Assembly (NCBI GenBank): GCA_965208775.1
Contig: OZ242360.1
Span: 2,676,699 to 2,740,698, forward strand
Reading direction: 5' to 3'
From: Chloroflexota bacterium
GTDB taxonomy: Bacteria > Chloroflexota > UBA11872 > VXNJ01
DNA: 64,000 bases
Positions 20,343 to 57,925 of the stretch are shown one piece after another. A model generated the notes under the pieces. It worked only from the letters and a program-made list of their open reading frames with translations, had not been told where the DNA came from and did no database searches. The position numbers were made by a program, and so were the translations under genes. Positions within the stretch are counted from its first letter, which is position 1, and every line of letters begins with the position of its first letter.

Positions 20343-20345
20343 CGG

Positions 20346-24931: not shown

Positions 24932-26014
24932 GGCGTCATAGCCAGTGCATGTGGAAAAACTAATGATCCCTTGCTGTATCGAGGAGAGAGCAAGGACTAC
25001 CCGGAGGTCTCGTCAACCCTTTGGCGAATGTGTAACGACTGGCGCAAACGAAGCAAATGGAATCTGAATGACCTCCAAAGAGTCCTCACCAACATATCAA
25101 GTAAGCATGACAACCCGGAGGCCAGAAGGCCAAGACAGAGCGAAAGCTACGTTGCCATTTGGTCTGGTGGCTATGACCCTACAGAGATGACAGAACAGGA
25201 AGTAGAACTGATGGGGGAACTGCAGCATTGGGGGGCTGCCACAAATCTCATCGATTTCACCAGAGACATGAACGTAGCCATCTATTTCGCTTGCGAAGAA
25301 AAATGGCAAAGCGATGGCAAGATAGTCATTCTCAGAGAGCGCGAATGGGCCAGGTGGTGTCTCGACGCGAAGACGCCCGCCCACAGAGCAGAAGCGCAGA
25401 AGAGCGTATTCCTCAGACATCCCGACGGCGTAGTGGCACCTTGGCGGGAAATCAAGATACCCAACCGGGATAAGCCCGTGCTATTGGACCAACTTAGCCA
25501 ACTGGAATCACCGGTAACCGCACTCACCGTATATAACGACATTTACGGCTATATCCGTCTGAACAATCGTTATCTTCAAGGGATGGACTATTACCACGAG
25601 GGAGTGGAGCTACTGGATCGCTATGCCAGGCTACTAGCGAATGAAAGTCCTCCTCCGGAAATGCTAGCGAGAATAAAAAATCTACACAGCAAGGCGGTAG
25701 AAAAGCTGGCTTGGATGGGAGGGCTTTGGGCAGAGCTTGGGCGAATACACTTCTATAGCTACGAGTTTGATGAAGCCAAAAGAGCGATTACGAAAGCGCT
25801 GCGAATGGAATATCGCCAGCCCTACATGTATGGGATTCTGGCAGAGATCGCCTTCAATGAAGGGAAGAAGAACGTGGCATTGGAGCATCTAAAGGACGCA
25901 TTGGCTGTGCATAGAGAATTGGACGGCGAGGAAGGTGCGAACCAAGGCGTATTCGATCAACTGGAAGCGCTCAAGGCCAGAGTTACTGCAATGGAAAACA
26001 CGGACGGCCAGTGA
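24908..26014 (+). CDS. FRG-domain protein with C-terminal TPR-like repeats
   Basis: LLYRGESKDYPEVSSTLWR and LQHWGAATNLIDFTRDMNVAIYFAC match FRG-domain signatures. The C-terminal helical repeats (WAELGRIHFYSYEFDEAKRAITKAL...) are TPR-like. Start trimmed to the ATG at 24908. Confidence 0.65.
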   Translation: MNELQELHGVIASACGKTNDPLLYRGESKDYPEVSSTLWRMCNDWRKRSKWNLNDLQRVLTNISSKHDNPEARRPRQSESYVAIWSGGYDPTEMTEQEVELMGELQHWGAATNLIDFTRDMNVAIYFACEEKWQSDGKIVILREREWARWCLDAKTPAHRAEAQKSVFLRHPDGVVAPWREIKIPNRDKPVLLDQLSQLESPVTALTVYNDIYGYIRLNNRYLQGMDYYHEGVELLDRYARLLANESPPPEMLARIKNLHSKAVEKLAWMGGLWAELGRIHFYSYEFDEAKRAITKALRMEYRQPYMYGILAEIAFNEGKKNVALEHLKDALAVHRELDGEEGANQGVFDQLEALKARVTAMENTDGQ

Positions 26015-26274: not shown

Positions 26275-27060
26275 TTGGGATGTGGAATCCGACATGGAGG
26301 TGCGGAGGAGATTGCTGAGAGGTGGGACGGTGAAGGACACGTACAAGTTGAAGGGTCAGGGCGGTCGATGCGTGGGATAGCGCGGGAACTGGGAGTCTCG
26401 CGGAACTCGGTGCGCAAGTATCTGAGGTCGCCTGGAGTACCGAGGGAGCGGCCGACGGGGCGTCGGGCGTCCAAGCTGGACCCGTACCGGGAGTACATCG
26501 CCGGGCGGCTGTACGAAGAGCTGGAGAACTGCGTGATGTTGCTGCGAGAGCTGCGGGCGCTTGGCTACAGCGGCGGCTACACGATCCTGAAGGACTACGT
26601 TAAGCCCCGTCGCCGGCGTCGGCAGCCGCGCGCAACGGTGCAGTTCGAAACGGGCCCTGGAGAGCAAGCGCAGGTCGACTGGGGGAGTATGGCGTACCTG
26701 GCCGAGGACGGTCGCAGGCGCCGCGTGTGGGCGTTCGTGATGGTGTTGAGCTGGTCGCGGGCGATCTACGTGGAGTTCGTGCGACGCTGCGACGTAGCGA
26801 ACTTCATGCGCTGTCACGTCAATGCGTTCGAGTACTTCGGCGGGGTGCCGCGGCGGTGTCTCTACGACAACGCCAAGGTGGTGTTGGGGCGCGACGCTGG
26901 CGGTCATGTCGAGTGGAACAGCCGGATGCTGGACTTTGCGTTGCGGGTGGGCTTCGAGCTGAGGTTGTGCCAACCGTACCGTGCGCAGACGAAGGGGAAG
27001 GTTCAGAGGGCGCTCCGGGCCGTGGGACGCAGCATGAAGGTCGAAGTCACCGCCGCCTGA
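26275..27060 (+). pseudogene. istA: IS21-family IstA transposase, C-terminally truncated
   Basis: HTH IARELGVSRNSVRKYL and DDE-region motifs QVDWG, VWAFVMVLSWSR, YDNAKV, PYRAQTKGKV. The homology stops right after TKGKV. No istB follows. Confidence 0.8.
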
Positions 27061-28802: not shown

Positions 28803-29900
28803 CTATCGACCGCCGATCGTCTCGAAGACGGTGTCGGCCGCAGCCAGTTCGTCGGGCGAGACCTCGATCCCGAGGCTGCGGGCCCGCGCCAGGTTGACGG
28901 TGGTGTCGGTCTGTTGCGGGTCGACGATGGGCATGGCGGCGGGGTCGGCTCCGTTCAGGATGTCCGCACCCAGCGCGCCGACGTAGGCCCCGGTCTTGAG
29001 CCCTGAGTTACCCACGGCGACCAGGAGGCCGTCCCGCGCCCAGTCGGCCACCAGACCAACTTCCGGCAGGGTGTTCTCCGCCACCATCCAGTCGATCACG
29101 GCGGCGGGTGGGACGATATCGCCGCTGGCATCGCGAAGCTGGTGGAAGTTCAGCACGGCGATGAGGTCGACCTTGTCCTGGTAGTCGGCGACCGCGCGCT
29201 TCCACTGGTCGAACGTCTCCAGGACCAGGAAGTCCAGGACCTCGACGGGCCTGGCGTCGGCGGCCTGGTCGTCGCGCTGGAAGGCGGCGCGAACGGCTAC
29301 GGAACTCGTGCCAGCATCCGCGAGGATGACGACCCTGGCCGCATCGGGAAAGAGCCGCGTGGCGGTTGCCAGGGCCTGCGTGTACGGGATGCGCTCCAAG
29401 GACCCGGTGATCGACCCACCGGGCACGTCCAGACTGCGGATGGGGGCGTAGACCGTCGGGTCGACATTGATGCCGGCAAAGACCGTGGGAAGCGGCGCGT
29501 CGGGGTTCTCCTCGGCGTACCGGACGGCCACGTGCTCCAGCGCGACATCGTCCGTGACAAACAGGAGATCGGGCGCAAAGGCCCGGAGTGCCGCAAGCGC
29601 CGCGGTCGCCCGCTGCTCGATCTGCTGCGGGCTGGTGAAGGTGATCCGGGTGTCCATCTCGAAGGTTTGTAACTGGTAGTCGCGCCCCGCGATTAGCCCG
29701 TTCCGGGCAAGGCCGTCGACGATGCCCTCGTGGAGTTGCCGGGTCCAGGCAAAGGCGTCGCTATACGAGTGCACGACCAAGATGCGATGCGGCGCATCCG
29801 CAGGGGCGGGGCCGTCGGGCGCAGGGGGCGTCGAGTCGCAGGCCGCGACGACGGCCAGGGCCACCAAAAGCAATGCCAGCCGCCATACGATCCGGGGCAT
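28803..29900 (-). CDS. ABC_sub_bind-type periplasmic substrate-binding lipoprotein
   Basis: Start trimmed to MPRIVWRLALLLVALAVVAAC (lipobox). RILVVHSYSDAFAWTRQLHEGIVDGL and the overall alpha/beta alternation resemble the PF04392-type binding-protein family. Confidence 0.65.
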   Translation of the reverse strand: MPRIVWRLALLLVALAVVAACDSTPPAPDGPAPADAPHRILVVHSYSDAFAWTRQLHEGIVDGLARNGLIAGRDYQLQTFEMDTRITFTSPQQIEQRATAALAALRAFAPDLLFVTDDVALEHVAVRYAEENPDAPLPTVFAGINVDPTVYAPIRSLDVPGGSITGSLERIPYTQALATATRLFPDAARVVILADAGTSSVAVRAAFQRDDQAADARPVEVLDFLVLETFDQWKRAVADYQDKVDLIAVLNFHQLRDASGDIVPPAAVIDWMVAENTLPEVGLVADWARDGLLVAVGNSGLKTGAYVGALGADILNGADPAAMPIVDPQQTDTTVNLARARSLGIEVSPDELAAADTVFETIGGR

Positions 29901-30045
29901 GAGACGCCGTTCAACCACGTCGATCACGCGCACACCCTTCATAGGAAATGGCCAGCGAACCCGGTCGGGTAGCGTACGCCCCCAGAACCACCCACCATCC
30001 ACCCGGTGGACCATAGGGCCGCCGTAGCGCCACGTACAGCCCGTG

Positions 30046-30886: not shown

Positions 30887-31660
30887 CTATGCAAAACTAT
30901 TACGAATCAAATCCGCAATCTCCGCAGCTATTTCCTCGACTGTATGAGTCGCAGTGCTGCGCGCCACTTTGTCCGCTAGCGAGGGACTGAAGGCGACCAC
31001 CGTGTCCTTAGAAATATTGTGCCAGATAGGAAGCAATACTTGGCTTCCATCCACGGATCTAGTGACTATCCCGTCAAGTTCGTAGTTAGTCCATCCCTTA
31101 GCAATAAAGGCCTCCGAGAGCACAACAAGACCGACGCTAGACTTCGCTAGTCCACGGTCGATTTTTCGACGCAGACTATCTCCTAACCTCAGTTCAAATT
31201 CGTCATACCACACCGTCAGCCCTTCGGCTTTGAGAGCATTCGCCAAGGGACGTACAACAGCGTCCTTGTCTTCAGACGCGTGCGAGATGAACACGTCGAA
31301 CTCTCTGGTCGAGTCCCCGGAGTCGTTGGCCGGAGGATGCTGGATCAAACCGGGAACCTGAGAGAGTGGAATATCTTGAAGCGGCGGAAGGGCGCTTGGG
31401 AGAATCCTCGCTGACGAACGAACGCTTCCACCTAACCCCTGCATGTCGACTGCTACGTGCCAATGGCCAGAACGCGGAATCACTAACCGCACGGGAGACT
31501 TTTTGGCCAATCCGCCCGTGTATCTGTGTCGTCTCCCATTGCGGTAGTTGCTGAGATTCGAGCTGTCGAGCAGTCTGACATTCGCAGCGTTCCCGCGAAG
31601 GCTGATCTCCACAATTTCGCCGGCTCTCCGTTGACCGAGATCATGGTGAACAAATCTCAT
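30887..31660 (-). CDS. DUF1883-like N-terminal domain fused to a TIR domain
   Basis: Start trimmed to MRFVHHDLG (GGAGGG RBS upstream). The N-terminus resembles DUF1883, from memory. C-terminal TIR: FDVFISHASEDKDAVVRPLANALKAEGLTVWYDEFELRLGDSLRRKIDRGL...GWTNYELDG...LPIWH. Confidence 0.85.
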   Translation of the reverse strand: MRFVHHDLGQRRAGEIVEISLRGNAANVRLLDSSNLSNYRNGRRHRYTGGLAKKSPVRLVIPRSGHWHVAVDMQGLGGSVRSSARILPSALPPLQDIPLSQVPGLIQHPPANDSGDSTREFDVFISHASEDKDAVVRPLANALKAEGLTVWYDEFELRLGDSLRRKIDRGLAKSSVGLVVLSEAFIAKGWTNYELDGIVTRSVDGSQVLLPIWHNISKDTVVAFSPSLADKVARSTATHTVEEIAAEIADLIRNSFA

Positions 31661-32846
31661 TAGCCCTCCGATATACGATGATTCATTGGGATGCGAAACG
31701 CTGCTGAAAGTCGTGGGGTTGATGCGAGTCGTAATATTCGGCCTGCAGCCCGCTTGTCGGCCCCGCAGCGAGGATAGATGCCGGATAGCGTGCGCCATCT
31801 GAACGTGTGGACACCGGAAACGAACGAAGCACGCGGGGCCGAATGGACGAGGTGCACCAGTTCGCTGGTGAAAGGCAGTACATGAGGCTGCAGGTTATTG
31901 CCAAGGACAAAGGGCGTGACCGCTTCGGGCGGCTGCCGGCGGATGTCCATTTGGTCGATAGCCGCCGCAGCGATGCACTGACGGCCGATGACTCGAACGC
32001 GTCTATGACGGCCGCACCAAGGAGGATCGGAGTTCGAAAACTAACGTACATGTCCCAGATGGGGAGAGCCGTGTCAAGTTGCCGTAGGCTATTTTGACAC
32101 GCCCCAGTACCTAAAGCTGGACTCCCCTCGTGCCGGCGGAAAGTATGAGACTTACTGGAACGTGGTCGACGATGTTATCCAACTACTCACACCGCCTGAG
32201 AACGCGCGTCCGATAGTTTGGATTGTTCGTCAGCGGTCACTAGGTGTTGAAGCCTTACAGTTGCAACCGAGGTCGTCATTTGTACGCGCAGCAGGCCGAC
32301 GCTGCCAGTTCATGCTTGGGCCGACCGGTTCCCTCGATATCTCGCCGAGCAGTCCAGACCGGTCGGGGCAAAGTTGGCCTCCATGCGCATTCAACCGGCG
32401 CACACTTCGTGAGGGACCGCCTATCAAATGCCGACATCGCCCGGGATGCCGTTACCCCCTTAGAGCACCCCTACACCGCCGTCACACGGTCTGAATCGAC
32501 CACATTCAGGGAGGTTAATATTCTCTGCGCTTTCTTGAGCAAAGAGGTTTGATATCGTCGTGCGAGGGACACGCGCATAGGTTAACGCTGGACGGGAGCG
32601 GTTTTGGCGCAGTGCCCCCAGCTCGAGGGCCGCTTCCTCGGCGACCGCCCGGCCCGCAGTTAGATGCAGCAGGTCGCCGGCGTAGAGCTCCGCGGTTGAC
32701 AGCTTCCAGCGGTGCTTGGCCGAATGACGCCCGGGCCGAACTGCCCCCTGGGCATTAACGTGGCTACCGCTTCATACAGTGCCTTCATGTTGACGATACC
32801 GAGTCGGTAGTTAGCACCATGCCGATTTGGGGGACGATTATTGCGC

Positions 32847-33395
32847 TCAAGACGGCTCAATGCCGAGTTCGTCCAGCAGCTCGCGAGCCGCCTCGAGACT
32901 CGGAGATTCCAACCCCTCGCTCTCCGCCCATGCCAGCACGGTCTCCAACGCGGCCCGCATTCGGTGGTGCAGAGAAGCCAAGGCTTCGTCAGGCTCTCCA
33001 ATCACCGACAGACCACTCCGGCCCGTCATTCCAGAGCCATGTTTCTCCAGCCAGCCTTTTCGGACCAGTTGCGCTACACATTGATGGATGGACGATCGCG
33101 CCCGGCTCAGCCCACACGCCATTTCCGTAATTGTTGGTGACCGGCCTTCCCTCTCTATGAATCCGCGTATGAATTCGTAACACCGTCTCTGCGTGGCTGT
33201 CAGCGGATCCCTGGACCTTCGATCGCCCTCCGCCAGAATCTGGTTGGCCGCCTTCGCCTGCCGCCTCGCCCAAACGCGGACCACGCTATGCGCCGAATGC
33301 CGGCTGCTGTATCCGAGCCGTTCAGCTATCTCCTGGTAGGTAGCACCCGCGATCCTCAGCTTGACCGCCTTTTCTTGTCTCGTCCGGTCGTTCAT
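32847..33395 (-). CDS. two-domain DNA-binding protein: sigma-r4/LuxR-like HTH plus LexA-N-like winged helix
   Basis: MNDRTRQEKAVKLRIAGATYQEIAERLGYSSRHSAHSVV, then LTATQRRCYEFIRGFIEREGRSPTITEMACGLSRARSSIHQCVAQLVRKGWLE (LexA DNA-binding-domain pattern). No peptidase S24 domain. Confidence 0.6.
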   Translation of the reverse strand: MNDRTRQEKAVKLRIAGATYQEIAERLGYSSRHSAHSVVRVWARRQAKAANQILAEGDRRSRDPLTATQRRCYEFIRGFIEREGRSPTITEMACGLSRARSSIHQCVAQLVRKGWLEKHGSGMTGRSGLSVIGEPDEALASLHHRMRAALETVLAWAESEGLESPSLEAARELLDELGIEPS

Positions 33396-33687
33396 GAGGC
33401 TACTCTCGGTCAGCACCACGCCAGCCGTGCTCGTTTGTCTCAGTCATCCTTACGCAAATGGATATCTTGCCGCTGCACGTGTGTCTAGCTACTCGCCTGA
33501 CTGACGATCCTGCCCGTAGGCGCCGCAACATCCCCTGATCGAAGCTTGCGAACAATCTTCTCGGGCGTGCACTTGCTCTCTGGCGTCCGCCTGTGGCTCA
33601 CCGCATAGTGCCCCTGATTCAACAACCCTGTGGCGGCAGGTCAGCCTTTCCGACTGACGCCGGCCAAAAGGGCAATGCCTGTATCGA

Positions 33688-34668
33688 GTGTATGCTGCCA
33701 CAAGCACCGTTAGTCCCCGTGGAGACTCGCTCGTGGACTTCGACCGGAATCACGACGCGAGAGTCAGAACGGCGGCCTTTGACTGGCTCGCTCGGTTGAC
33801 TTCGCTTCATGGCGACGTTCTGCCCCGCGACACGCTCGCCGAAGGGTTCGAACTCGACCAGCGACGTGTACCGGTGGTTGGCCCGCAAGGCATATTCAAA
33901 CCCGCTCTGATGCAGGTACCGCTATCGATTACGACTGCTCCTAGGGGACCCTATGACGATGCGATCGGCCCCGATAATCTCCTGAGGTATCGGTACCGCG
34001 GTACGGATCCTAGCCACCGCGACAACGCCGGACTACGGTTTGCAATGAACCGCAGCCTGCCGCTCGTGTATTTTCACGGTATCGTCCCAGGGCGATACTT
34101 AGCCATGTGGCCCGTGTATGTAGTCGGCGATGAGCCGGAATCTCTCACGTTCTCGATCGCACTCGACGATGCGATTCACTCAGGTCTCTTTCCTGATAGT
34201 TCGGGGGCTCTAGGCGCAGACACAGTCAAGGCCGGCGAGATCCGCAGAGAGTATGTAATGTCAATCGCCCGCCGTCGGCTGCATCAAAGAGCCTTCCGCG
34301 AGCGGGTGCTTCGTGCGTACCGACATCAATGCGCTCTGTGCCGTCTGCGCCATAGGGAGTTGCTCGACGCTGCCCACATCCTGCCGGATGCAGAACCCGA
34401 AGGTGAGCCCGTTGTCCGCAACGGCATTGCGCTATGCCGCTTGCACCACGCAGCGTTCGACCGGTTTTTCCTAGCCGTGCGACCGGACCGCATCATCGAG
34501 GTCCGTGCCGACGTCTTGGAGGAAGTCGATGGCCCGACGCTTAGGCACGCAATCCAAGGGTTGCACGGCAAACCCATTGTGTTGCCGGCGAAGTTGTTGG
34601 AGCAGCCCGCCCATGAGTTTCTAGCCGAGAGATACGAGCGATTTCTTGAGGTGGCGACAGCGCGATGA
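33688..34668 (+). CDS. HNH endonuclease (HNH_2-type), putative modification-dependent restriction enzyme
   Basis: C-terminal HQCALCRLRHRELLDAAHILP...NGIALCRLHHAAFD HNH motif. The N-terminal GPQGIFKP...PLSITT...LRYRYRGTDPSHRDNAGLR region is typical of stand-alone COG3440-like restriction endonucleases. Confidence 0.75.
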   Translation: MYAATSTVSPRGDSLVDFDRNHDARVRTAAFDWLARLTSLHGDVLPRDTLAEGFELDQRRVPVVGPQGIFKPALMQVPLSITTAPRGPYDDAIGPDNLLRYRYRGTDPSHRDNAGLRFAMNRSLPLVYFHGIVPGRYLAMWPVYVVGDEPESLTFSIALDDAIHSGLFPDSSGALGADTVKAGEIRREYVMSIARRRLHQRAFRERVLRAYRHQCALCRLRHRELLDAAHILPDAEPEGEPVVRNGIALCRLHHAAFDRFFLAVRPDRIIEVRADVLEEVDGPTLRHAIQGLHGKPIVLPAKLLEQPAHEFLAERYERFLEVATAR

Positions 34669-34734: not shown

Positions 34735-35646
34735 TCAACTGACAAGCTCCAGTAGATCATCGGTGATCTCTTCAACACTGTTTACTGATGTGTTCAAGGC
34801 GACCTTGTCTGCCAGCGTTGGACTGTAGTGAGAGACCTCATCAATCGACACTTTGTGCCAAATCGGTAGAATCCGACTAAGTCCCTTCGATTCGAGGGTT
34901 ACAAGTCCATCTAGCTCCTTTTGCGGCCACTCCTTCTTGAAAAAGAATTCTGAGAGAACCACTACTCCGAATTGTGAGTTCGCCAACCCGCGGTCAATCT
35001 CCCTGCGCAGGCTATCGCCCACGTTGAGTGCGAATTCGTCGTACCAAACTCTTGCTCCCTTGGCTTCCAGCATCGTCGCCAGTTGGCGAACAAATCCGTC
35101 CTTATCTTCACTGGCATGACAAATGAAGAAGTCATACTCTTCTCGGCTGGGAGGATCGACCTGAGGCGCTCGGGCTATCTGCGCACGTTGTGTGATTTCG
35201 GCCGTAATCCGACGCTCATGTGCCTCTCGTTCCATAATCAGGCGTCTCTGTGCTTCAGCGACTGCCCTTCTGTCTTGCGCACTCTTCCGAGCTTGCCGGT
35301 CTCTCTCTGCTGCAAGCTTCTTCTGCTCTCGTTGATTCTCGCGCGCTTGACGTTCCTCATACGAGTGGAGCCTCTTGGATCTTTCGGCGATCCTGATTGC
35401 CAGACTTGCCAATCGCTTCTCTACCGTTGCAAGGTCTCTGTAGGCACTCTCCGCCTCTCTGGTCCTTGACTTGAGGGTTGCCGGGTTCTTGGCTCTCAAA
35501 GCAGCATCGTTCGCACGGTTTATCTTCGCCAACAGTGCCGCCTGCTTCTGACGCTCCCGTGCCTGATTGTTCTGGAGTCTTGCGATTTCGCTGCTGAGAC
35601 TGTCTATTTGGCGATTGATCATCGAGGCAAGACCACCCGAAAGCAC
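34735..35646 (-). CDS. coiled-coil N-terminal domain fused to a TIR domain
   Basis: About 160 aa of heptad-rich, Arg/Glu/Ala-rich sequence, then YDFFICHASEDKDGFVRQLATMLEAKGARVWYDEFALNVGDSLRREIDRGL...EWPQKELDG...LPIWH. The TIR domain is paralogous to that of 30887..31660. GTG start at 35646; alternative ATG at 35622. Confidence 0.85.
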   Translation of the reverse strand: MLSGGLASMINRQIDSLSSEIARLQNNQARERQKQAALLAKINRANDAALRAKNPATLKSRTREAESAYRDLATVEKRLASLAIRIAERSKRLHSYEERQARENQREQKKLAAERDRQARKSAQDRRAVAEAQRRLIMEREAHERRITAEITQRAQIARAPQVDPPSREEYDFFICHASEDKDGFVRQLATMLEAKGARVWYDEFALNVGDSLRREIDRGLANSQFGVVVLSEFFFKKEWPQKELDGLVTLESKGLSRILPIWHKVSIDEVSHYSPTLADKVALNTSVNSVEEITDDLLELVS

Positions 35647-35653
35647 ACGACTC

Positions 35654-36157
35654 CTAGGTCGCTGTCAAACGAAGGTTTCGGTATACCGGAAATCTTCGGC
35701 TTAGAGAGGAAGCGTCCCACCTGATTCTCTCAAACGCTGGCACCGGAGCTGCGCGTCCGGCATAACTCCATATACAAGTCCCCAAAAAACCGGGAGAGTG
35801 ACTGCCGATCTGAAGACGTGCGAGTTCGTGCACGATTATGCTTTCGATCAGCGATGGCTCCGGCATCATTGTGCGCCAGTTGAATCGCAGCGTGCCGTCG
35901 GGGGCGCAGCTTGCCCAACGCCGCCGCAGGTCGCGGATGAGGTTTGACGGCTTGTGCCCACAACCTAAGCGGGGCCACCAGCGGTGGACACTTGGCGGTA
36001 ACCGCTCTCGGGCGCGAGTGCGATACCACTTCATAACGGCGCGCCGGATTCCCGCGTAGCGTTCCTCCTCGTTGGGACCACGGGGGGCATCCACCAGGAA
36101 CCGCCTGTGTTCGAAACGGACCAGCGCGGATCTCACGTCGGCAGACTCAACCACCAC
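35654..36157 (-). CDS. DUF45/YgjP-like (M48-related) metallopeptidase-fold protein, degenerate motif and probable frameshift
   Basis: RRWASCAPDGTLRFNWRTMMPEPSLIESIIVHELARLQIGSHSPGF matches the WGSC...HELxHL..xNHS..FW family, but the second His is Arg (HELAR). After GF a T6 run (35765-35770) shifts the frame. Removing one T gives the canonical FWGLVYGVMPDAQLRCQRL...stop at 35701. Confidence 0.6.
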   Translation of the reverse strand: MVVESADVRSALVRFEHRRFLVDAPRGPNEEERYAGIRRAVMKWYRTRARERLPPSVHRWWPRLGCGHKPSNLIRDLRRRWASCAPDGTLRFNWRTMMPEPSLIESIIVHELARLQIGSHSPGFLGTCIWSYAGRAAPVPAFERIRWDASSLSRRFPVYRNLRLTAT

Positions 36158-42332: not shown

Positions 42333-43316
42333 TCATCGAGGCTCAAGCTCCTGAATTCGCTGCGCGAACGCGTTGTGCAAGCCCTCCAGCATTTCCAGCA
42401 GCCATGCGTACTGTTCATCGCGCGTACCAAAAGCCTCGGCGGATGTCAGCTGGCGGACGACGATGCGGCATCTTCGACGATTCTGCTGCTTGATCCACTC
42501 AAGCGCATGGCCGATTTGGCTTTCGATGTCGGCCTGCTCGGCAAGGAGCTGATCGAAATAGTCATGGGCGTGGTCCAGGTCGTCAATGGCGACCTCGGCG
42601 CGCAACTCTTGGACGGAGAAATCTTCATCATCGGCATCACCGGTCGAGATGTAGGCGAAGAGGTAGAAGCGAGTTTTGCCTAAGCCCAAGCGCATCCAGT
42701 TCTGAGGACCGGGATTTGGAGGTGAGATAGGCGACCCATGTGCCTTGACGTGCTCTCGAAATCCGGTCCAAAAATCGAGCTGAAACCGTTTGGCGGGGCT
42801 GAGGTTGCCGGGTCTGGCGCGGCCGCCCTTGGTCCAGGAGTTCGGCTTGGAGACAACCTTGAAGTCCGGTGCCGGCAGGGAGTCGCCGATTCGGAACACC
42901 TCGATCTCCAGCCCGAAGAACTGGATGTCATCGGCCGAGATCTCATTGAGCCAGTCGAGGGCGGCGCGATGCTCGTCGGTGAACCGCCGCGCGATCCAGG
43001 CGATCGTGACGGCGTTGAGGCCTGCTGCGTAGGTGAGGATTTGACCGAGGTGGACGTGGTTGGAGGCTTCGAGCTGGTTTTCGACGAGTACCCAGTTGTC
43101 GGTGCCGACCTCCCTGCAGACCAGGTCGGCCCTGTAGGGGCCGACGTCCTTTTCGCGGCTCTCCAGCTCCAGTTCGATGCCCAGCTTGTCGCCGAGCAAG
43201 TCGAGGTTTTCCTTGACGGCGAGCCAGGGCGTGAATTGTTGCGGCTCGCTCTGCCAGATCTCGCGGAGGTCGAGCTGCACGAGCCTGCTCAACTGGGTGT
43301 GGCAGACGGACGGCAC
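42333..43316 (-). CDS. PD-(D/E)xK nuclease-like N-terminal domain plus DUF4268-like C-terminal domain protein
   Basis: IWQSEPQQFTPWLA...VGPYRADLVCREVGTDNWVLVENQLEASNHVHLGQILTYAAG...DEHRAALDWLN, then FWTGFREHV... The start is uncertain; I chose GTG at 43316 (track ORF extends to 43433). Confidence 0.65.
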   Translation of the reverse strand: MPSVCHTQLSRLVQLDLREIWQSEPQQFTPWLAVKENLDLLGDKLGIELELESREKDVGPYRADLVCREVGTDNWVLVENQLEASNHVHLGQILTYAAGLNAVTIAWIARRFTDEHRAALDWLNEISADDIQFFGLEIEVFRIGDSLPAPDFKVVSKPNSWTKGGRARPGNLSPAKRFQLDFWTGFREHVKAHGSPISPPNPGPQNWMRLGLGKTRFYLFAYISTGDADDEDFSVQELRAEVAIDDLDHAHDYFDQLLAEQADIESQIGHALEWIKQQNRRRCRIVVRQLTSAEAFGTRDEQYAWLLEMLEGLHNAFAQRIQELEPR

Positions 43317-43721
43317 GGGTGCCCCCTCGCTGAAAGAGATGTAGCGGGTTGTGCAATCCGTCAACGTCTGGCAGACCGCGAGGGAGCGCGAAGCTACACC
43401 TCGCGGGCAGGCCCGCCAGGACACGGATTGCACGAGTGGAATCTATCAAGCAGAGCCAGGGCCTGTCCACCGCTCCGATGTGCGCGGGGGTTGCGAGGCC
43501 GGTCAATCGGCAGACCGAGGCCGGTTGTGCCTTAGTCCGACACAGACTCCGACTTGGGGCCGGGACCGGGCCGTTGCCCTGCACTTCCGAGAGAGGGGCC
43601 AGGCGGCCGGTCGTGCACCGGGCCACAGGACTGTGCTCGTCCCGGGCGGGACAGCTCACGCCGACAGGAGCCGCCCGATAGCGGCATTGTCATCGGAGGC
43701 GGGACGCCGATGCGGGCCGTT

Positions 43722-45431
43722 TCAGTTGCTCGGTCCGGTTGCCGCTCTCAGGAACTCATCAATAACCTCATTGACGAGCTCCTTGACCTCATCCTTTTCA
43801 TTTATGGACCAGAGGCCTGCGATGCGCCCATCGTGGACGATCTCTTTGGCAATGCGCCTGCTAGCTTCAACGACTCCGGCGTCGATGTCCTCCGGGGCGC
43901 CGTTCTCACCGTCGGAGGCATGGTCTTGCCCGAGTTGCTCAAGAGCCGCCAGGCTCAAGAACGCCCACATGGGATCATCCGGGTTACCGCACGCGTCCAC
44001 GGCATCCACGAAGCGGCGGATAGCGGTGCGGCGATCGTCGAGCAGGTCGGCTACCTCGGCATAGACGATTTCGCAGTTTCTGAAGTAGGTAGACCGGATC
44101 AGGGTTACCGCGGCGGCGAGTCCGTCCAAGACGGTCAGCAGTTGCGCGGCGCGGTCGCGCAGCTGGATTTTGGTCTCGCCAAACTGATCGGGGATGCCCA
44201 GCCCCGTGGCTCGTGCGGCGGCTTCCAGGCGGGTGAGGAGGCGTGACCTACCGGCCAACTGCCGGCGAGCCGAGACCGGGTCGTGGACGATCCAGGTCTC
44301 CTCGTCGTCCAACGGTTCGATCGTCTCGACCGGAATACCGCCAAGGCGGGCCTTGCACCCTTGGTTGTTAACCCATTCGTTCCAACTTGCCAGCACGATG
44401 CCGGCTTCCACAGAGGCGTCAAGTCGAGAGCTGAGCTTGCGGGCGCGCCACTTCTGGTAGAGGGAGAAGTTGACATAGGGACGACCGTTGAAGTTGCGGC
44501 GTTTGCCGCGATAGGAGCGGACGCGGTCACGTGCGGCCCGGAGGGCGTCAAACCAGGAGGCGTCGTCGATCGGCGAGGCTTCTCCGTAGTCGTCGGTTCG
44601 GACGACGCGCTCCCAGCCGAGCTGGTGCAAGTCTGCGGAGTCGCGCTGAGACCAGCCGCCGTCGCGGAGGATGACACCCAGTTCGGCCAGTTCGAGGGCG
44701 GTGATGTCGATCCAACGGCCTTCGAGCAGTGGCGCCGAGCGGAGGAAAAGATGCGGCGAGTCGTTCAGCGAGACTCGCTTGCCCGGCTCGATTTGTCCGG
44801 ACCTTGCGAGGCGTCTGATCTCGCGTTCGACCCGGCGGGATTTCCTTATCGCGCAATCGTATGAAATCTCTTCCTCGCTATTGTTCTCAAGTTCCTGGTT
44901 AATCCACCTATCGATAGTCCCCAAGTCGTGGAGGTTGATCCAGGACTCGACGTAGTGAGGGAGGGCGGCCTCGACCGCGGCGGCCGTCTCGGTATCAAGC
45001 GGGTAGGGCATGTCGAAACACGCCGTGACCCACGTCTGCTCGGCGTCGCACCGGCGAAGCACATCGAGCACGATACTGCGATATTCGGAAAACAGGAGCG
45101 GGGTGGTGGCATCGGCGCGAGCGATCTCAGCGCAGATGCGATAGTTCATCTGAAAGTGGATGTCCCAGAGGAAGACTACGTCGCGAAGATACTGCCGGAG
45201 AAACCTCTTGATTGTTGGGTCAGGTTGTTTCTTAGTTATCTTGAAGGCGGCGTTTCGTGCCATCTGGGTCATCCGGTGGCGTGGCAACCCGGTCCAATGA
45301 GAGTCTCTGAGGATCCGCAGATACTCGACCATAGATGGCACTCGCGAGATCGTGATGAGTTCACGAAGGACCATCTCGGTCGGGTCCAGATCCTCGCAGA
45401 GGTCCTCAAGTCGTCTGGCTTTCGACTTCAA
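43722..45431 (-). CDS. large hypothetical protein (569 aa), third gene of the methyltransferase operon
   Basis: The TTG start overlaps the upstream stop (TTGA). No Walker, nuclease or other motif that I can recognise. Non-repetitive, helical-looking composition. Confidence 0.7.
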   Translation of the reverse strand: MKSKARRLEDLCEDLDPTEMVLRELITISRVPSMVEYLRILRDSHWTGLPRHRMTQMARNAAFKITKKQPDPTIKRFLRQYLRDVVFLWDIHFQMNYRICAEIARADATTPLLFSEYRSIVLDVLRRCDAEQTWVTACFDMPYPLDTETAAAVEAALPHYVESWINLHDLGTIDRWINQELENNSEEEISYDCAIRKSRRVEREIRRLARSGQIEPGKRVSLNDSPHLFLRSAPLLEGRWIDITALELAELGVILRDGGWSQRDSADLHQLGWERVVRTDDYGEASPIDDASWFDALRAARDRVRSYRGKRRNFNGRPYVNFSLYQKWRARKLSSRLDASVEAGIVLASWNEWVNNQGCKARLGGIPVETIEPLDDEETWIVHDPVSARRQLAGRSRLLTRLEAAARATGLGIPDQFGETKIQLRDRAAQLLTVLDGLAAAVTLIRSTYFRNCEIVYAEVADLLDDRRTAIRRFVDAVDACGNPDDPMWAFLSLAALEQLGQDHASDGENGAPEDIDAGVVEASRRIAKEIVHDGRIAGLWSINEKDEVKELVNEVIDEFLRAATGPSN

Positions 45432-45895
45432 TTTAGAGATGCGTCCTTGGGGCCGTCGACCTCGGCCGGATCGATATCGAAGGGAGAGGCGAGGTCCGGC
45501 GAGCGCGCGCCCATGGCAGCCCTGATGTCGGCGAAGCCCTGTTCGAATTGGCCCTTGTCGTGGAGTTTCAACAAGACTTCACCGACACGCGCAATGGCAT
45601 AGCAACGGGTGGTGGAAGTCTCCATGCCGAGGAGATCGAAGGCGGCGATTTCGACGAAGCGGCGTAGGCCCTCGATCGAATCGAGATTCTCGGGGAGGTT
45701 GAAGGCGCCCTCGATGGTCTTCTCGCGGCGGCGGCGTAGCCCGCCGAGGCGCCTCGCTTTGGCCGCGTCCTGCTTGTGATCGGGGTGGTGCCAGAAGCAA
45801 AAGTCCTCGTCGCGCATGGGATTGGCGCGGCAAGGCAAGCCGTCCTCCTTGACGTGGGTGCAGCGGGGTCCACGGGGGTTAGGTCCTAAGAACAT
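45428..45895 (-). CDS. hypothetical protein with N-terminal Cys/His cluster
   Basis: Start trimmed to MFLGPNPRGPRCTHVKEDGLPCRANPMRDEDFCFWHH (C-x9-C-x11-C-x2-HH zinc-ribbon-like). Overlaps the methyltransferase end by 10 nt. Confidence 0.6.
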   Translation of the reverse strand: MFLGPNPRGPRCTHVKEDGLPCRANPMRDEDFCFWHHPDHKQDAAKARRLGGLRRRREKTIEGAFNLPENLDSIEGLRRFVEIAAFDLLGMETSTTRCYAIARVGEVLLKLHDKGQFEQGFADIRAAMGARSPDLASPFDIDPAEVDGPKDASLN

Positions 45896-47184
45896 TTGGC
45901 AACTCCTTGTTTCTCGAATTGATTTGCGTCGTTCTGCAGGGAAGCCGTATCGCCCGTAAACGCCTCCCACCGCCGGACCGCCACGTCCACGTAAGCCGGT
46001 TCCTGCTCGATCGCGTAGCAGATGCGGCCCGTGCGCTCGGCCGCGATGATCTGGGTGCCCGACCCTGAGAACGGCTCATAGACGATGTCTCCCGGCTCCG
46101 TGTGGTACTCGATCGGGCGGATGAATAACTCCACCGGCTTCTGTGTCGGGTGGACCCCGAAGCTCTCGAAACGCTGGTCGACGTTCCAGATGGTCGAGAC
46201 ATTGCTGGGAGGCTTACGCTTGGGCATCTTGCCCTCCACCCACCCGACAAAGCACGGCTCGTGTCTCCAGAGATAGAAAGAGTGGGTCAGGACGCCCCGG
46301 GCCTTACACCAGATGATCTGCTGATGGACAAGAAGCCCGGCCTTGATCCAGGCCTCCTCGACCAGCGCCTGCCTGCGATGGGCATGCCATTGATAGACAG
46401 CGGAGTGAGACGCGAGGTGCGCCAATCCTGCAGAGAGAAACTTGAAGTAGAACTCCACCGACGACTCGGGATCGTGGTAGTCGTCCCAGTGCTTATCTCG
46501 GTTCGGATCGCCTTTGTTCGACCTGCTGGCGGGGTGACTTCCGCCCCGATAATCGACGAGATACGGCGGGTCCGTCGCCATGAGTGAGGCCCGCTCGTCT
46601 CCGAACAGGCGGCCCACGTCGGCCAAGTCGGTCGAATCGCCGCAGAGCAAGCGATGGTCGCCCAATTTCCATATGTCGCCGGGTTGCGCCACAGTGTCCG
46701 CCTTTGCGGCGGCCAGGGCGGCCTCTGGATCGAAGTGCTCGATGCGCTCGCGCTTGTCCTGGGCGTCCAGCGACCTGAGCAGCTTCGCAACCTCGTCATC
46801 GTCGAAGCCGGAGAGCGAGACGTCGATATCGGGAGTAGCGTCCAGCTCCGACAACAGTCGGGCAAGCAGTTCCTCGTCCCACGAGCCGGAAATCTTGTTG
46901 AGGGCCAGATTCAACAACCGGGCCTGCTCGGCCGACAAGTCCACAAAGATCACCGGCACGGAGGCGAGACCGAGACGACGGGCCGCGAGTAATCGCTGGT
47001 GACCTCCGATGACCGTCTTGTCCTCGCGGCGTGCGATGACCGGATCGACGAACCCGAACCTGCGCATTGATCGAGTCAAAGAGTCCAGCTCCGAGTCTGA
47101 TATGCGCCTGGGGTTGGCGGGATCCGGGCGCAGGTCGTCGATGGGCATGTGGACAACGGAAAGCTTGCGGTCAGTGGTCGACAT
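45886..47184 (-). CDS. ParB-like N-terminal domain fused to a beta-class N6A/N4C DNA methyltransferase
   Basis: ParB-N: PIDDLRPDPANPRRISDSELDSLTRSMRRFGFVDPVIAR...IGGHQRLLAARRLG. MTase: DPPY (LMATDPPYLV) precedes the AdoMet motif EPFSGSGTQIIAAERTGR, i.e. the beta-class permutation. Confidence 0.85.
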   Translation of the reverse strand: MSTTDRKLSVVHMPIDDLRPDPANPRRISDSELDSLTRSMRRFGFVDPVIARREDKTVIGGHQRLLAARRLGLASVPVIFVDLSAEQARLLNLALNKISGSWDEELLARLLSELDATPDIDVSLSGFDDDEVAKLLRSLDAQDKRERIEHFDPEAALAAAKADTVAQPGDIWKLGDHRLLCGDSTDLADVGRLFGDERASLMATDPPYLVDYRGGSHPASRSNKGDPNRDKHWDDYHDPESSVEFYFKFLSAGLAHLASHSAVYQWHAHRRQALVEEAWIKAGLLVHQQIIWCKARGVLTHSFYLWRHEPCFVGWVEGKMPKRKPPSNVSTIWNVDQRFESFGVHPTQKPVELFIRPIEYHTEPGDIVYEPFSGSGTQIIAAERTGRICYAIEQEPAYVDVAVRRWEAFTGDTASLQNDANQFEKQGVAKCS

Positions 47185-48066: not shown

Positions 48067-48732
48067 TCACATCAGCGCGACGCGGTAAGAAGACAGGATC
48101 TCCTCCACGTAGAGGCGTCCCGCGCCGGAATCGAGATTGCGGTCTGCCGCCGGCACCGGCAGACCGTCGGTGACCTCCTTGAAGCAGCCGTCGGGGCAGC
48201 GGTCCGCAAAAAAGACATATGCGAAACCGTCCGGCTCCCGATGGGATCGCCACGTCAGGCCGGCCGCCGACGGAGCCCACGTGCGGATGGCCGAAGACCA
48301 GCGTCGTGTCATGGCGTAGTCGGCGGCGGGCGCGGTCGTCAGCCAGGAGTCTTGTCCCAGCGCGGCCAAATCCACGCCCGACCGGAGACTGACGAGTTCG
48401 AGCTCCAGAGTCGTCGCGAGACAGCTGATTCGCAGATCCGAAAGTCTGATGCTTGGAAGCAGGCGTGCACCGTAGTCGTCGAACGGGAGGTCACGGAGCA
48501 AGACCTCTGCGACGGCCGTCGGATCGCTGTCGGCCGCGTAGAGAAATGCGTACTCATCGCCGGGCGTCGAATCGAACCGGCCACCTTGCAGATCGCTTCG
48601 AGCCACCGTCGGATTGAAGTCGACGACGTCGAAGGCGGCGCTATGGATGCGGGTAAGCCTGGTACCTGCCGGCAGAACGTAGAGGCGTGGGACTCCCCGG
48701 TAGCGTGGCGGGGGAGCTTGATACGGCGGCAA
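48067..48732 (-). CDS. RES-domain toxin
   Basis: GGRFDS (Arg), LYAADSDPTAVAEVLL (Glu), GLTWRSHREPDGFAYVFF (Ser) in the usual RES order. Confidence 0.75.
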   Translation of the reverse strand: MPPYQAPPPRYRGVPRLYVLPAGTRLTRIHSAAFDVVDFNPTVARSDLQGGRFDSTPGDEYAFLYAADSDPTAVAEVLLRDLPFDDYGARLLPSIRLSDLRISCLATTLELELVSLRSGVDLAALGQDSWLTTAPAADYAMTRRWSSAIRTWAPSAAGLTWRSHREPDGFAYVFFADRCPDGCFKEVTDGLPVPAADRNLDSGAGRLYVEEILSSYRVALM

Positions 48733-48738
48733 GCCCGC

Positions 48739-49455
48739 TTACCCGACCGGTTCGACGACGGCCTCGGCGACGTTGACGAGGTCGTCCGCACGGCCGGTCC
48801 CGACTAGGTCGACGGGGCGGGCATTGAGGCGCGCGTGCCGGGATACCCACCAGGATGCTACGCCCCAGGGATCGCTCACAGCTGAGAGACGTTGGTTGAC
48901 CGCCCGCACCTCGGGAAAGGTGTTACGTCGTTCGGGGTCGAACTGGAACGCGGGGTATACAAACCCCCGGCCGGATGGCAGACCGAGCAGCCAGGAACGT
49001 TCGCGATACTGCCTGACTTTCTCTCGATTCGTGCGTTTTGCGCCGAGCGCTACTGCAGCGTTTCTCGACTCGAGCATAGGCTCGCGCCAAATCGTCTGGA
49101 TGGCCTCGCCTCGGGTCATCGCCTGGTCCATGGTGGTAAGTCCGGTCTCATGGAGCACGCGATGGGGCTCGCCCCCGAGTTGCCTGGCGAGATCGGTTCG
49201 CAGTGCGACCAGCGTCAGCCAGCTGCGGAGCTGGGACTCGTGGCCCTCCAAGGCCTGGTGGCGTGCGGCGAGCGAGGCCGCGGCATCGAGCAGGTCGGGG
49301 TCGCGTAGCGGCAGTTGACCTATGAGTCGCAGCAGCAGTGCGCCGGCGTCGCAATCTCGGCGTGAGACGAAGAACAGGAGCGCTTCCTCGAGCTCCTGAT
49401 CGTCAAACTCCTGCTCCAGCTCCAGGATTCGTCTGTCCAGTTCGCGCTGACTCAC
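48739..49455 (-). CDS. Xre/MbcA/ParS-type antitoxin (DUF2384-like C-terminus) for the RES toxin
   Basis: Lies 6 nt upstream of the RES gene. The C-terminal ...SDPWGVASWWVSRHARLNARPVDLVGTGRADDLVNVAEAV resembles the toxin-binding domain of RES antitoxins. Confidence 0.6.
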   Translation of the reverse strand: MSQRELDRRILELEQEFDDQELEEALLFFVSRRDCDAGALLLRLIGQLPLRDPDLLDAAASLAARHQALEGHESQLRSWLTLVALRTDLARQLGGEPHRVLHETGLTTMDQAMTRGEAIQTIWREPMLESRNAAVALGAKRTNREKVRQYRERSWLLGLPSGRGFVYPAFQFDPERRNTFPEVRAVNQRLSAVSDPWGVASWWVSRHARLNARPVDLVGTGRADDLVNVAEAVVEPVG

Positions 49456-50915: not shown

Positions 50916-51881
50916 ATGGCACGCAAGGCACCGGAAAAGTGCCACCGCAAGGGCATGTCGCTTGAGGACCTGTTCGACCGGTTTCCCGACGATGCCGCTG
51001 CCGGGAAGTGGTTCGTTGAAGCCCGCTGGCCGGACGGGATCCGCTGTGCTCACTGCGAAGGCTCGAACGTAGCCCGCTCCACGCACCCGACGATGCCAAA
51101 TCACTGCCGCGACTGCCGGAAGTTCTTCTCGGCCAAAACGAAGACGGTCATGCACTCTTCGAAGATCGGCTACCGCAAATGGACATTGGCGATCTACATC
51201 CTGACGACCAACATCAAAGGCGAGTCCAGCGTCAAGCTACGCCGCGATGTCGGCCTGAAGACCCAGCGGGCCGCGTGACACTTGGCCCACCGAATTCGCA
51301 AAGCTTGGCAGTCCGAAGGCGGCATGTTCGCTGGCCCGTTCGAGGCCGATGAATTGTTCGTGGGAGGTAAGGAACGCAACAAGCACGTCGGTCAGTCGGT
51401 AAGCGGCTGAACGCCGGACGTGGCACAGTCGGCAAAACGGCCGTCGCGGGCGTGAAGGATCGCCCTACGAACCGCATAGCGGCCAAACCCGTGGACGCCA
51501 CGGACGCTACAGGGATTTGTCGTAGAGCCAACAGAACCGACGGCAACCGTCTACACGGAAGGCGCTCGCGCGTACGATGGACTGCCAAAACTCCGCGAAG
51601 CCGTACGACACAGCGTCGGAGAGTACGTGCGCGAGATGGCCCACACGAATGGGATTGAGTCCTTGTGGGCAATGTTCAAGCGTGGCTACGTCGGCACGTT
51701 CCACAAGCTGAGCGAGAAGCACTTGGACCGCTACGTAGCCGAATTCGCCGGTCGGCACAATCAGCGCCCGCTCGACACGATTGACCAAATGACCGCGATG
51801 GTTCGCGGCATGGACGGCAAGCGGCTCCGCTACGTAGACCTCATAGGACCGCCGGAGAGGCGACAGCCCAAGATGTTGTAG
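50916..51881 (+). pseudogene. IS1595-family transposase with internal stop and frameshifts
   Basis: N-terminal Zn ribbon CAHCEGSNV...HCRDCRKFFSAKTKTVMHSSKIGYRKWTLAIY. The frame is lost after 51278. The C-terminal part HTNGIESLWAMFKRGYVGTFHKLSEKHLDRYVAEFAGRHN...GKRLRYVDLI is in another frame (51627..51881). Confidence 0.8.
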
Positions 51882-57149: not shown

Positions 57150-57925
57150 CGGGTGCGGACCGGGCGGCCGTCGGTTCGTTGTAGCCAGGACCGAAGACCT
57201 CGACGCCGAGCGGCGGCGTTTCGATGTAAAGAGCCTGTTCTAGAACCTAGAACGGTCTTGTGGCGAGCAGTCGTCGGAGGCACGGAGCGGGCATCGGGAG
57301 GCGACCGGCTGGGCTCAAACCGCGAAGAACCTAAGTGGGGAAACTGGAACTAGGAGAACCGTGCCCGGAGTTGAAGCTTGAGACGTCCCGGGCGCAAGGA
57401 CTAGGCGTCAGATGGCCAGGATTCTCAGCAGTGTGTAGCAGTAACTGGCAGCGATGCCCCTGCGGATATCTCGGGGACGCGCGCAGAGAGTGCACCTGCA
57501 CGCAGTCGCAAATCACGCGCTATCGCAGGCGGATTTCCGGTCCGCTTCTGGATCGAATCGACGTGCATGTTGAGGTGCCGCGGGTGAAGTACGAAGAGAT
57601 GGCGGGAGTTGCGACCGGGGAGCCGTCGGAGAGCATAGGACGGCGAGTCACGGAGGCGCGAGAGATCGGAGCCAAGCGGCTGACCGGGACGGGAAGACTC
57701 ATGAACGCGGAGATGAATGCGAAGGACGTGGACAGGTTCTGTGACACGGACCGGGATGCAGAGTCATTGCTGCGGCACGCACACGACCGGTTGCAGCTTT
57801 CGGGGCGTGGGTTTCACCGGGTGTTGAAGGTGTCGCGCACGATAGCGGACCTAGACGGGGCCGAGCGGATCGGAGTCTCGCATCTGGGCGAGGCTCTGCA
57901 ATATCGCGCGCGGGCTGAAGACTGA
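57150..57925 (+). pseudogene. comM: comM/yifB (Mg-chelatase-like ATPase) 3' remnant, 5'-truncated and decayed
   Basis: The tail is well conserved: CPCGYLGDARRECTC...YRRRISGPLLDRIDVHVEVPRV...GRGFHRVLKVSRTIADLDG...HLGEALQYR. Upstream homology (TSRAQG..F.AV..SN; VVGG..GD) is weak and needs a frameshift. No Walker A/Lon-like N-terminal half anywhere in the window. Confidence 0.75.

Follow-up and report, generated by a model that had tools for sequence, protein, structure and literature searches.

Do three overlapping genes lodged in a bacterial defence island form an immune system of their own, or do they belong to a mobile element around which the island grew? The question is raised by a 64,000-nt stretch of the Chloroflexota contig OZ242360.1 (positions 2,676,699 to 2,740,698; assembly GCA_965208775.1), hereafter the window, to which all coordinates below refer unless stated otherwise. 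In this window, a DNA methyltransferase (MTase) gene, A, overlaps a gene for a small protein with a Cys/His cluster, B, which in turn overlaps a gene for a larger protein of no recognizable family, C. The original prediction viewed this triad either as an atypical modification-dependent self/non-self system or as a leftover of a phage anti-restriction module. We conclude, with moderate confidence, that the three genes are not an immune system in their own right, but the conserved operon at the backbone of a family of integrative mobile elements that are satellite-like and associated with comM. The window would accordingly hold a decayed Chloroflexota-type copy, in which the triad survives together with its cargo and the end next to comM, whereas the recombinases, the regulatory switch and any replication genes were lost. 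Of the two earlier hypotheses, the former is not the best fit, given the constant backbone, the seven near-identical methylases in one genome, the truncated C-family partners (mini-C) and the methylase-free cassettes described below. The latter comes nearer the mark, although the source appears to be a satellite-like, comM-associated element instead of a phage. As a whole, the earlier interpretation is thus partly supported.

The operon comprises the following features:
45886..47184, minus strand: gene A, 432 aa, ATG start, AGGAGA 8 nt 5' of the start
45886..45895, minus strand: overlap of the A stop with the B start, 10 nt
45428..45895, minus strand: gene B, 155 aa from ATG, AAGGAG 5' of the start
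45428..45431, minus strand: TTGA, shared by the stop codon of B and the non-ATG start codon of C
43722..45431, minus strand: gene C, 569 aa, TTG start

A check of the open reading frame (ORF) coordinates confirmed that the three minus-strand genes (43722-47184) are chained by overlaps of 10 nt and TTGA, as originally described, and a purine-rich, Shine-Dalgarno-like stretch precedes each start. The A/B overlap is 7 nt in related loci, compared to 10 nt in the window. A longer GTG-initiated ORF of B extends to 45970; the B homologues begin at the ATG. The TTG start of C is supported by the alignment of residues 1-33 with the N-termini of all homologues and by the retention of a TTGA/GTGA overlap between B and C, preceded by GGAGCC, in 11 of 11 related loci. 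In the public annotation, C (P0001, 536 aa) starts 33 codons late and is therefore too short. Comparison with related loci detected no conservation in the promoter region 5' of A. Recurring as it does in many independent loci, the A-B-C arrangement is beyond chance.

Gene A is predicted to encode a fusion of a ParB_N domain with a beta-class N6A/N4C DNA MTase and is a clear member of PHROG 498. The Pfam matches (ParB_N at 1e-10, N6_N4_Mtase at 5e-18), the match to phrog_498 (6e-126 over 419 residues) and the motif positions all bear out the initial assignment of this gene; PADLOC recognizes it as MTase_II. The GxxRxxA motif of ParB is intact (GHQRLLA at residue 61), and DPPY at residue 205 precedes FSGSG at residue 372, which is the beta-class order. 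Homologues of A, 35-38% identical, are carried by 240 phage genomes. In Lactobacillus phage CR191, the ParB-MTase gene lies directly (about 160 nt) upstream of the small and large terminase genes (terS-terL), and in Streptococcus phage Javan29, it lies about 2 kb upstream of them, with four small genes in between. Thus, A shares the intact ParB and beta-class motifs with the orphan methylases of PHROG 498, but whereas terS-terL are the next genes in the phages, here they are B and C, both absent from sequenced phages. As for a cognate endonuclease of A, neither B nor C matches any nuclease family, with the middle domain of C being poorly modelled.

As for the proposed check of whether the three genes co-occur in other genomes, A, B and C were found together widely. 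The triad recurs, overlaps included, in Chloroflexota, and all named source genomes are uncultured members of this phylum. Eight loci share the same order: integrase, serine recombinase, a variable region, an M78 peptidase and a helix-turn-helix (HTH) protein, A-B-C, an Mrr-like or GmrSD gene and variable cargo. In L001, L003, L004 and L006, the integrase is of the tyrosine type and is accompanied by a large serine recombinase, and in intact relatives, the M78 peptidase and Xre-type HTH genes stand directly upstream of the triad on the opposite strand. The gene after C encodes a type IV restriction enzyme (Mrr/HARE-HTH or GmrSD), and the variable cargo includes type I restriction-modification (R-M), Kiwa, Bil, UvrD-PDDEXK and AAA_15/DUF4276 genes. 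A single 3.80-Mb Chloroflexota metagenome-assembled genome, OZ253578.1, carries seven triad loci (L012-L018) in a single orientation, spanning 3.16 Mb to 0.07 Mb of that contig and differing in their defence cargo; three of these are only 35-52 kb apart, which suggests tandem accretion. Within this genome, the copies of A are 90-98% identical, those of B 54-100% and those of C 55-99%; with two further Chloroflexota-type loci added, the ranges are 89-98%, 54-100% and 50-99%, respectively. Seven copies whose methylases are 90-98% identical are compatible with a mobile element present in multiple copies, but would be superfluous in a system of the R-M type. The combinations of B and C are mosaic, as in L016, which joins the B of L012 to a C of the L014 type. 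The window copy is 82-84% identical to the other Chloroflexota copies in A, 51-57% in B and 39-48% in C. Thus, the triad is the constant part of these loci and the recognized defence genes are the variable part.

Two peculiarities of the Chloroflexota loci were observed alongside. In L006 (11714-13669 of that locus) and L011/L005 (~11960-13632), a second C paralogue, 38-45% identical and without a B of its own, lies directly downstream of C, representing a tandem duplication. Approximately 110-250 nt upstream of A in L014, L018, L006 and L011, between the HTH gene and A, there are repeated TTGC-N-GCAA-type motifs (ACAATTGC...TCGCAAT...GGCAATGC...TCTCGCAAATAATACAC) that look like operators for an Xre-type repressor; these motifs are missing from the window.

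The second line of evidence comes from the far side of the island, where the window contains part of a comM gene:
57335..57925, plus strand: 3' fragment of comM (Mg-chelatase-like), matching Pfam Mg_chelatase positions 132-206 and Mg_chelatase_C
57405..57433, plus strand: element-side sequence abutting the comM breakpoint, from the junction alignment, part-conserved with GGTGTAGTTCTGACCTTCACGG of six loci

Homology to comM begins at the CPCG codons, about 57434, and the fragment putatively marks the end of an inserted element. Searches with tblastn located a comM fragment with the same breakpoint beside six B-bearing loci (L038, L045, L063, L053, L072 and L010). In all six, the fragment begins at the same codon, on the strand opposite to the cassette and just outside the primase end, and the element-side junction sequence is conserved, with GGTGTAGTTCTGACCTTCACGG before TGCCCCTGCGG, a recognizable version of which is kept in the window. 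The shared breakpoint and junction sequence therefore place the window triad in the same family of comM-associated elements. Beside these six unrelated metagenomic loci, the comM fragments persist as intact ORFs with 40-54% identity, suggesting selection.

Between the comM end and the triad, as well as immediately downstream of C, the window contains the following features:
42333..43433, minus strand: DUF4268 gene, PADLOC candidate PDC-S11 at 5e-106, the first cargo gene after C
48067..48732, minus strand: RES toxin gene, Pfam RES at 2e-19
48739..49455, minus strand: RES partner of 238 aa, upstream of RES, with no HTH, DUF2384-type or other Pfam match at E<=0.1
50916-51278, plus strand: IS1595-family zinc-ribbon fragment (Pfam)
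51627-51881, plus strand: IS1595-family DDE fragment (Pfam)

The DUF4268 gene occupies the place of the Mrr-like or GmrSD type IV enzymes of related loci, whereas RES and its partner (48067..49455) stand where these loci have the Xre/M78 switch. Both the DUF4268 and the RES neighbour had been correctly named at the outset, but Pfam lends no support to the supposed Xre identity of the RES partner, so that the RES-Xre label is half verified. Because their zinc-ribbon and DDE parts fall in separate ORFs, the IS1595-family fragments derive from a decayed insertion sequence. Apart from these remnants and RES, just toxin-antitoxin-like small genes lie between the comM end and A. No remnant of an integrase, serine recombinase, M78 or HTH gene was detected in the window by tblastn, the 47-57 kb region contains no primase/helicase replication module, and a small terminase was found neither in the window nor in the Chloroflexota-type loci. 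With no recombinase, primase, M78 or HTH remnant, the window copy is therefore a decayed, immobilised one. In line with the original prediction, phage morphogenesis families are missing among the 34 window ORFs scanned against Pfam, which are the larger ones from ~11.9 kb on, some as short as 82 aa.

To what kind of element, then, would such an operon belong? B has at least 319 relatives in JGI metagenomes, from which 80 loci were kept, all chosen for carrying B; 4 relatives were found on IMG/VR contigs, the sole hint of helper-dependent induction and encapsidation. Upstream sequence sufficed in 38 loci, of which 31 have an MTase gene no more than 1.5 kb ahead of B and two more have one within about 2.2 kb, and of 68 downstream partners, 53 overlap the B stop by 4 nt at their start. 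This partner belongs to the C family in 34 loci, where it is mostly mini-C, a protein of 250-330 aa (typically ~265 aa and all-helical) that matches only positions 1-125 and 465-604 of the C profile. Hence, C consists of a helical scaffold with a ~340-residue domain inserted mid-protein, and the ~265-aa mini-C is the predicted ancestral partner of B. In 22 loci, the partner is of the y360 family (360 aa), which hhalign relates to C with a probability of 92.7% (E 4e-7); for a 292-aa partner type, a relation to C was undetectable by hhalign. Many loci carry a small gene between A and B, encoding a protein with DUF2924/RAMA features and a C-terminal zinc ribbon. That the middle domain of C might be a fused copy of this RAMA/DUF2924 protein was ruled out by hhalign. 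Full-size relatives of C also occur, as in L106 (ParB-MTase, RAMA protein, B and a 623-aa C) and in L108 and L109, where B directly precedes C relatives of 609 and 646 aa. In other loci, the methylase is missing: L107 encodes B and a 641-aa C without a methylase nearby, and L069 and L096 contain intact x143-B-partner cassettes with no MTase in the 2-4 kb upstream. In L107, fragments of the y360 type and a C-type partner were seen in tandem after one B.

The longer of these loci display the surrounding element. Upstream primase-helicases are of the PrimPol-D5 or Toprim-AAA_25 kind, with a DnaG zinc ribbon plus AAA_25 and DUF3854 also found; the module is present in L010, L020, L021, L027, L038, L041 and L049, and a serine recombinase in L020, L027 and L041. 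Small terminases of the Terminase_4 family come in four variants (L020/L034-36, L021, L041 and L066). Genes for capsid, portal or large terminase were found in none of the loci examined. Host genes were seen on both sides: past the partner, at a distance of 0.2 kb in L069 and 2 kb in L045, there are ABC-transporter genes, and metabolic genes lie upstream in L034. The order of the small form is comM 3' fragment, primase-helicase, (small terminase), ParB-MTase, (RAMA/DUF2924 protein), B and partner. Such a set of genes would characterise an element of the phage-satellite type, small, replicative and integrative. In L020/L036 (IMGVR_UViG_3300039412_001175 and a JGI contig), the methylase gene occurs twice in inverted orientation (2200-3453, plus strand, and 7131-8384, minus strand), and a serine-recombinase fragment is placed opposite a full recombinase copy; these genes jointly flank terS-x135-B-mini-C, which looks like an invertible or duplicated segment.

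The properties of B and C are consistent with a function on nucleic acids. The Cys/His cluster noted earlier in B was upheld by the alignment of relatives, in which C12, C22, C33 and H36 are conserved. There is also an invariant ARRLGGLRRRREKT motif, and the arginine-rich motif and zinc knuckle are kept across hundreds of relatives, suggesting a conserved nucleic-acid target. In the AlphaFold2 model of B (mean predicted local distance difference test (pLDDT) score 74, and 91-94 over residues 11-40), the zinc knuckle is the confident part, and three or four helices come after it; the C-terminal region is helical. Weak, sub-threshold matches of B relatives to DUF5763 are the sole family hint; we found no description in the literature of DUF5763 or of the A-B-C gene combination. 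B has no significant match in Pfam, PHROGs or PADLOC (zero PADLOC families at E<=0.1), and tblastn found no match to it in 50,697 phage genomes or in plasmid genomes.

Alignments and the AlphaFold2 model divide C into an N-terminal helical part (residues ~1-130), an inserted middle domain (~131-415) and a C-terminal helical part (~416-569). The model has a mean pLDDT of 59, with the two helical parts being confident and the middle domain not; the models of both B and C predate the deep alignment of ~950 C relatives. The middle domain is the most conserved part of C within the Chloroflexota clade (column identity 0.76, compared to 0.5-0.55 for the flanking linkers) and is rich in conserved Trp, Tyr and Arg, with an ELAELG helix followed by strands. 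These features suggest nucleic-acid binding rather than inhibitor mimicry, and residues ~225-290 possibly form a winged-helix-like stretch. The description of C as a protein without recognizable domains stood in every comparison: Pfam, PHROGs, PADLOC (zero families at E<=0.1) and PDB sequences yielded no significant match, and a Pfam scan of 47 diverse C relatives, as well as a search of PDB with the 47-sequence profile, returned nothing. For both B and C, phmmer against PDB gave chance-level matches only, and Foldseek with the AlphaFold2 models no match at E<=0.001. No nuclease (PD-(D/E)xK, HNH, GIY-YIG or PLD), ATPase or toxin signature was found in either protein with Pfam, PADLOC, PDB or Foldseek. 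Nor is C a known phage protein by family match, by tblastn of the 50,697 phage genomes or by the IMG/VR scan, and its homologues are not confined to intact prophages. Close relatives of C number ~30 at the cluster level (38-49% identity), and a 90% identical paralogue, P0002, is encoded elsewhere in the same 3.24-Mb genome. The wide family, from a profile search of 1.84 billion representatives (clusters at 50% identity), comprises about 950 members at E<=1e-3 and 454 at E<=1e-10; a further homology search with the broad alignment brought nothing new.

How might such an operon serve its element? Upon entry or derepression, A-B-C, which comes first behind the Xre/M78 switch, would be transcribed into a single message. 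The ParB-MTase, made first, would methylate the DNA of the element, and incidentally that of the host, shielding the element from restriction. B and C would follow by termination-reinitiation at fixed, decreasing ratios, as implied by the weak TTG/GTG start of C. With its zinc knuckle and arginine-rich motif, B could then join C, a helical scaffold with an inserted, probably DNA-binding domain, in a non-enzymatic nucleoprotein complex on element DNA. We would favour for this complex a role in marking the element DNA for packaging or helper hijacking, or in establishment, which matches the place of terS-terL behind the corresponding methylase of true phages. Defence cargo would find its landing pad immediately past the end of C. 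A bolder proposition, which we regard as doubtful, is that the ParB-MTase, B and C constitute a new methylation-centred nucleoprotein machine, whether immune, counter-immune or marking DNA for packaging or retention, and that it is the invariant anchor of undescribed comM-associated elements which multiply to seven copies per genome and assemble Chloroflexota defence islands, with B and its partner superfamily being a widespread two-protein module.

Several considerations weigh against assigning the triad to the backbone of such elements. All wider loci were selected for B, so the same backbones might also carry other genes in this position, which would make A-B-C cargo, and the term 'satellite-like' reflects a likeness in gene content. 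At the opposite end, neither the window nor the related loci yielded a 5' half of comM, leaving the element boundaries and the integration model incomplete; a repeated att core was likewise not found in the window. The operon is set in a dense defence island, partners translationally coupled behind a methylase would be just as expected of an R-M-like system, and Xre/M78 pairs may stand beside regulated defence operons as well, CapH/CapP of CBASS (cyclic oligonucleotide-based antiphage signalling systems) being Xre/M78-type regulators of this kind. Finally, the role proposed for B and C is a prediction, the model of C being poor and without a structural match.

Among the alternatives, the one that survives best, though we consider it unlikely, is an anti-defence module, in which the methylase would defeat restriction while B-C bind and neutralise other functions of the host or helper phage at entry or induction. 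The place of the triad in intact relatives, where no other operon comes between it and the Xre/M78 switch, would suit such a module, as would the kinship of A with typical phage orphan methylases and the nature of B and C, which resemble many anti-defence proteins in being non-enzymatic, devoid of known domains and subject to rapid mosaic divergence. However, within the Chloroflexota clade, conservation of C peaks in the middle domain (0.76), whose features favour nucleic-acid binding over inhibitor mimicry, the zinc knuckle and arginine-rich motif of B, conserved over hundreds of relatives, point to a conserved nucleic-acid target, and 569 aa is large among known anti-defence proteins. Overall, an anti-defence role of B-C is compatible with most data and is inseparable here from one in packaging or establishment.

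Methylation-linked, R-M-like defence is less probable still. Under this explanation, A would mark self, B-C would act as sensor and effector on unmethylated DNA, coupling and the weak start of C would prevent autoimmunity, and the triad would be a frequent cargo of integrative elements. Its location in a defence island between PDC-S11/DUF4268 and RES fits, as do the type IV restriction genes directly downstream in relatives, the methylase being strictly first with conserved overlaps, and the much faster divergence of C than of A, as expected of specificity or arms-race components. The RAMA-domain protein between A and B in many relatives is typical of R-M neighbourhoods, and the divergent HTH/M78 pair resembles CapH/CapP-type regulators. 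By contrast, B and C lack any nuclease, ATPase or effector signature, even with the 47-sequence profile, and have no PADLOC match; the commonest partner of B, the helical mini-C of ~265 aa, lacks the middle domain; seven methylases that are 90-98% identical would be redundant in a single genome; the x143-B-partner cassettes of L069 and L096 have no adjacent MTase; and the triad is constant where recognized defence genes vary. Type II R-M systems likewise share with these loci a methyltransferase with coupled partners in a defence island, and a RAMA protein in the cassettes of many relatives, but here there is no recognizable endonuclease, many partners are short helical proteins, several copies share one genome, and the methylase-free loci L069, L096 and L107 argue against strict partner dependence. 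An R-M-like role is thereby weakened.

It is very improbable, indeed essentially excluded, that B-C are a degenerate terS/terL pair from a prophage packaging module, an argument from position after the methylase in Javan29 and CR191 and from similar sizes (155 and 569 aa): C has no Terminase match in Pfam or PHROGs even at E<=0.1, its confidently modelled N- and C-terminal parts are helical with no P-loop family matched, a genuine Terminase_4 exists besides B in relatives, mini-C is only ~265 aa, and neither B nor C has a tblastn match in phage genomes.

Comparison with described elements places the triad-bearing ones closest to phage satellites. Among the latter, VEIMEs (virion-encapsidated integrative mobile elements) mix tyrosine/serine recombinases, primase-helicases, small terminases and methylases (Eppley et al. 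2022, PMC9618062). Like satellites of the phage-inducible chromosomal island (PICI)-like and VEIME types, the relatives of the window locus are small and integrative, encode a serine and/or tyrosine recombinase, a primase-helicase, sometimes terS, and a methyltransferase, carry no capsid or large-terminase genes and have defence cargo at one end. This likeness is one of genes, however, and the B-partner cassette is no described satellite gene; moreover, the Chloroflexota forms are larger and multicopy, with defence cargo dominant, and the window copy has no recombinase, primase or terminase genes. Elements of the ImmR/ImmA (ICEBs1) type and CapH/CapP operons share with the relatives the divergent Xre-type HTH and M78 pair directly upstream, but the pair is missing from the window, and no conjugation or relaxase genes were seen. 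The Tn6022/AbaR-type comM islands of Acinetobacter are Tn7-like transposons. They also interrupt comM at a fixed point and have a resistance or defence island alongside, whereas the elements described here encode serine/tyrosine recombinases and primases instead, and the comM 5' half was not found.

While the element type is known, what would be new here is an undescribed family of comM-associated elements in which a ParB-methylase is coupled to a widespread two-protein cassette. If the triad is indeed their backbone, defence islands in a poorly studied phylum would be built by a small element with a fixed methylase-B-C core, which lands at a fixed site, multiplies in the genome and can later decay in place, and just downstream of which restriction, TIR, Bil, Kiwa or GmrSD-type genes are gathered. 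B-C, a large unannotated pair coupled to a phage-type methylase, would then be an experimental target for studying the protection, marking and packaging of element DNA. For annotation, it appears prudent to check for an element backbone before calling a methylase with unknown neighbours in a defence island a new form of immunity.

The remainder of the window contains further genes of a defence type. A pair of TIR-domain proteins, one with DUF1883, clusters with an HNH_2 protein, a YgjP-like metallopeptidase and a winged helix-turn-helix (wHTH) protein of the LexA/MarR type, and this cluster probably adds to the defence cargo of the island. The coordinates of this TIR/HNH_2/YgjP-like/wHTH cluster are:
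30887-31798, minus strand
34735-35646, minus strand
33688-34668, plus strand
35654-36157, minus strand
32847-33419, minus strand

A histidine-kinase region rich in GC (0.65-0.69) gives way at about 14.5 kb to a stretch of lower GC content (0.53-0.58), in which a second group of genes was observed:
15832-16632, minus strand: HepT-like RNase
18999-20843, plus strand: AAA_15/AAA_21 ATPase
24863-26014, plus strand: FRG and TPR protein
26275-27060, plus strand: rve-type integrase fragment

The ATPase gene (18999-20843) has an adjacent 165-aa partner, separated from it by a 3-nt gap. An ABC substrate-binding gene (28803-30014; GC 0.645) may separate two islands.

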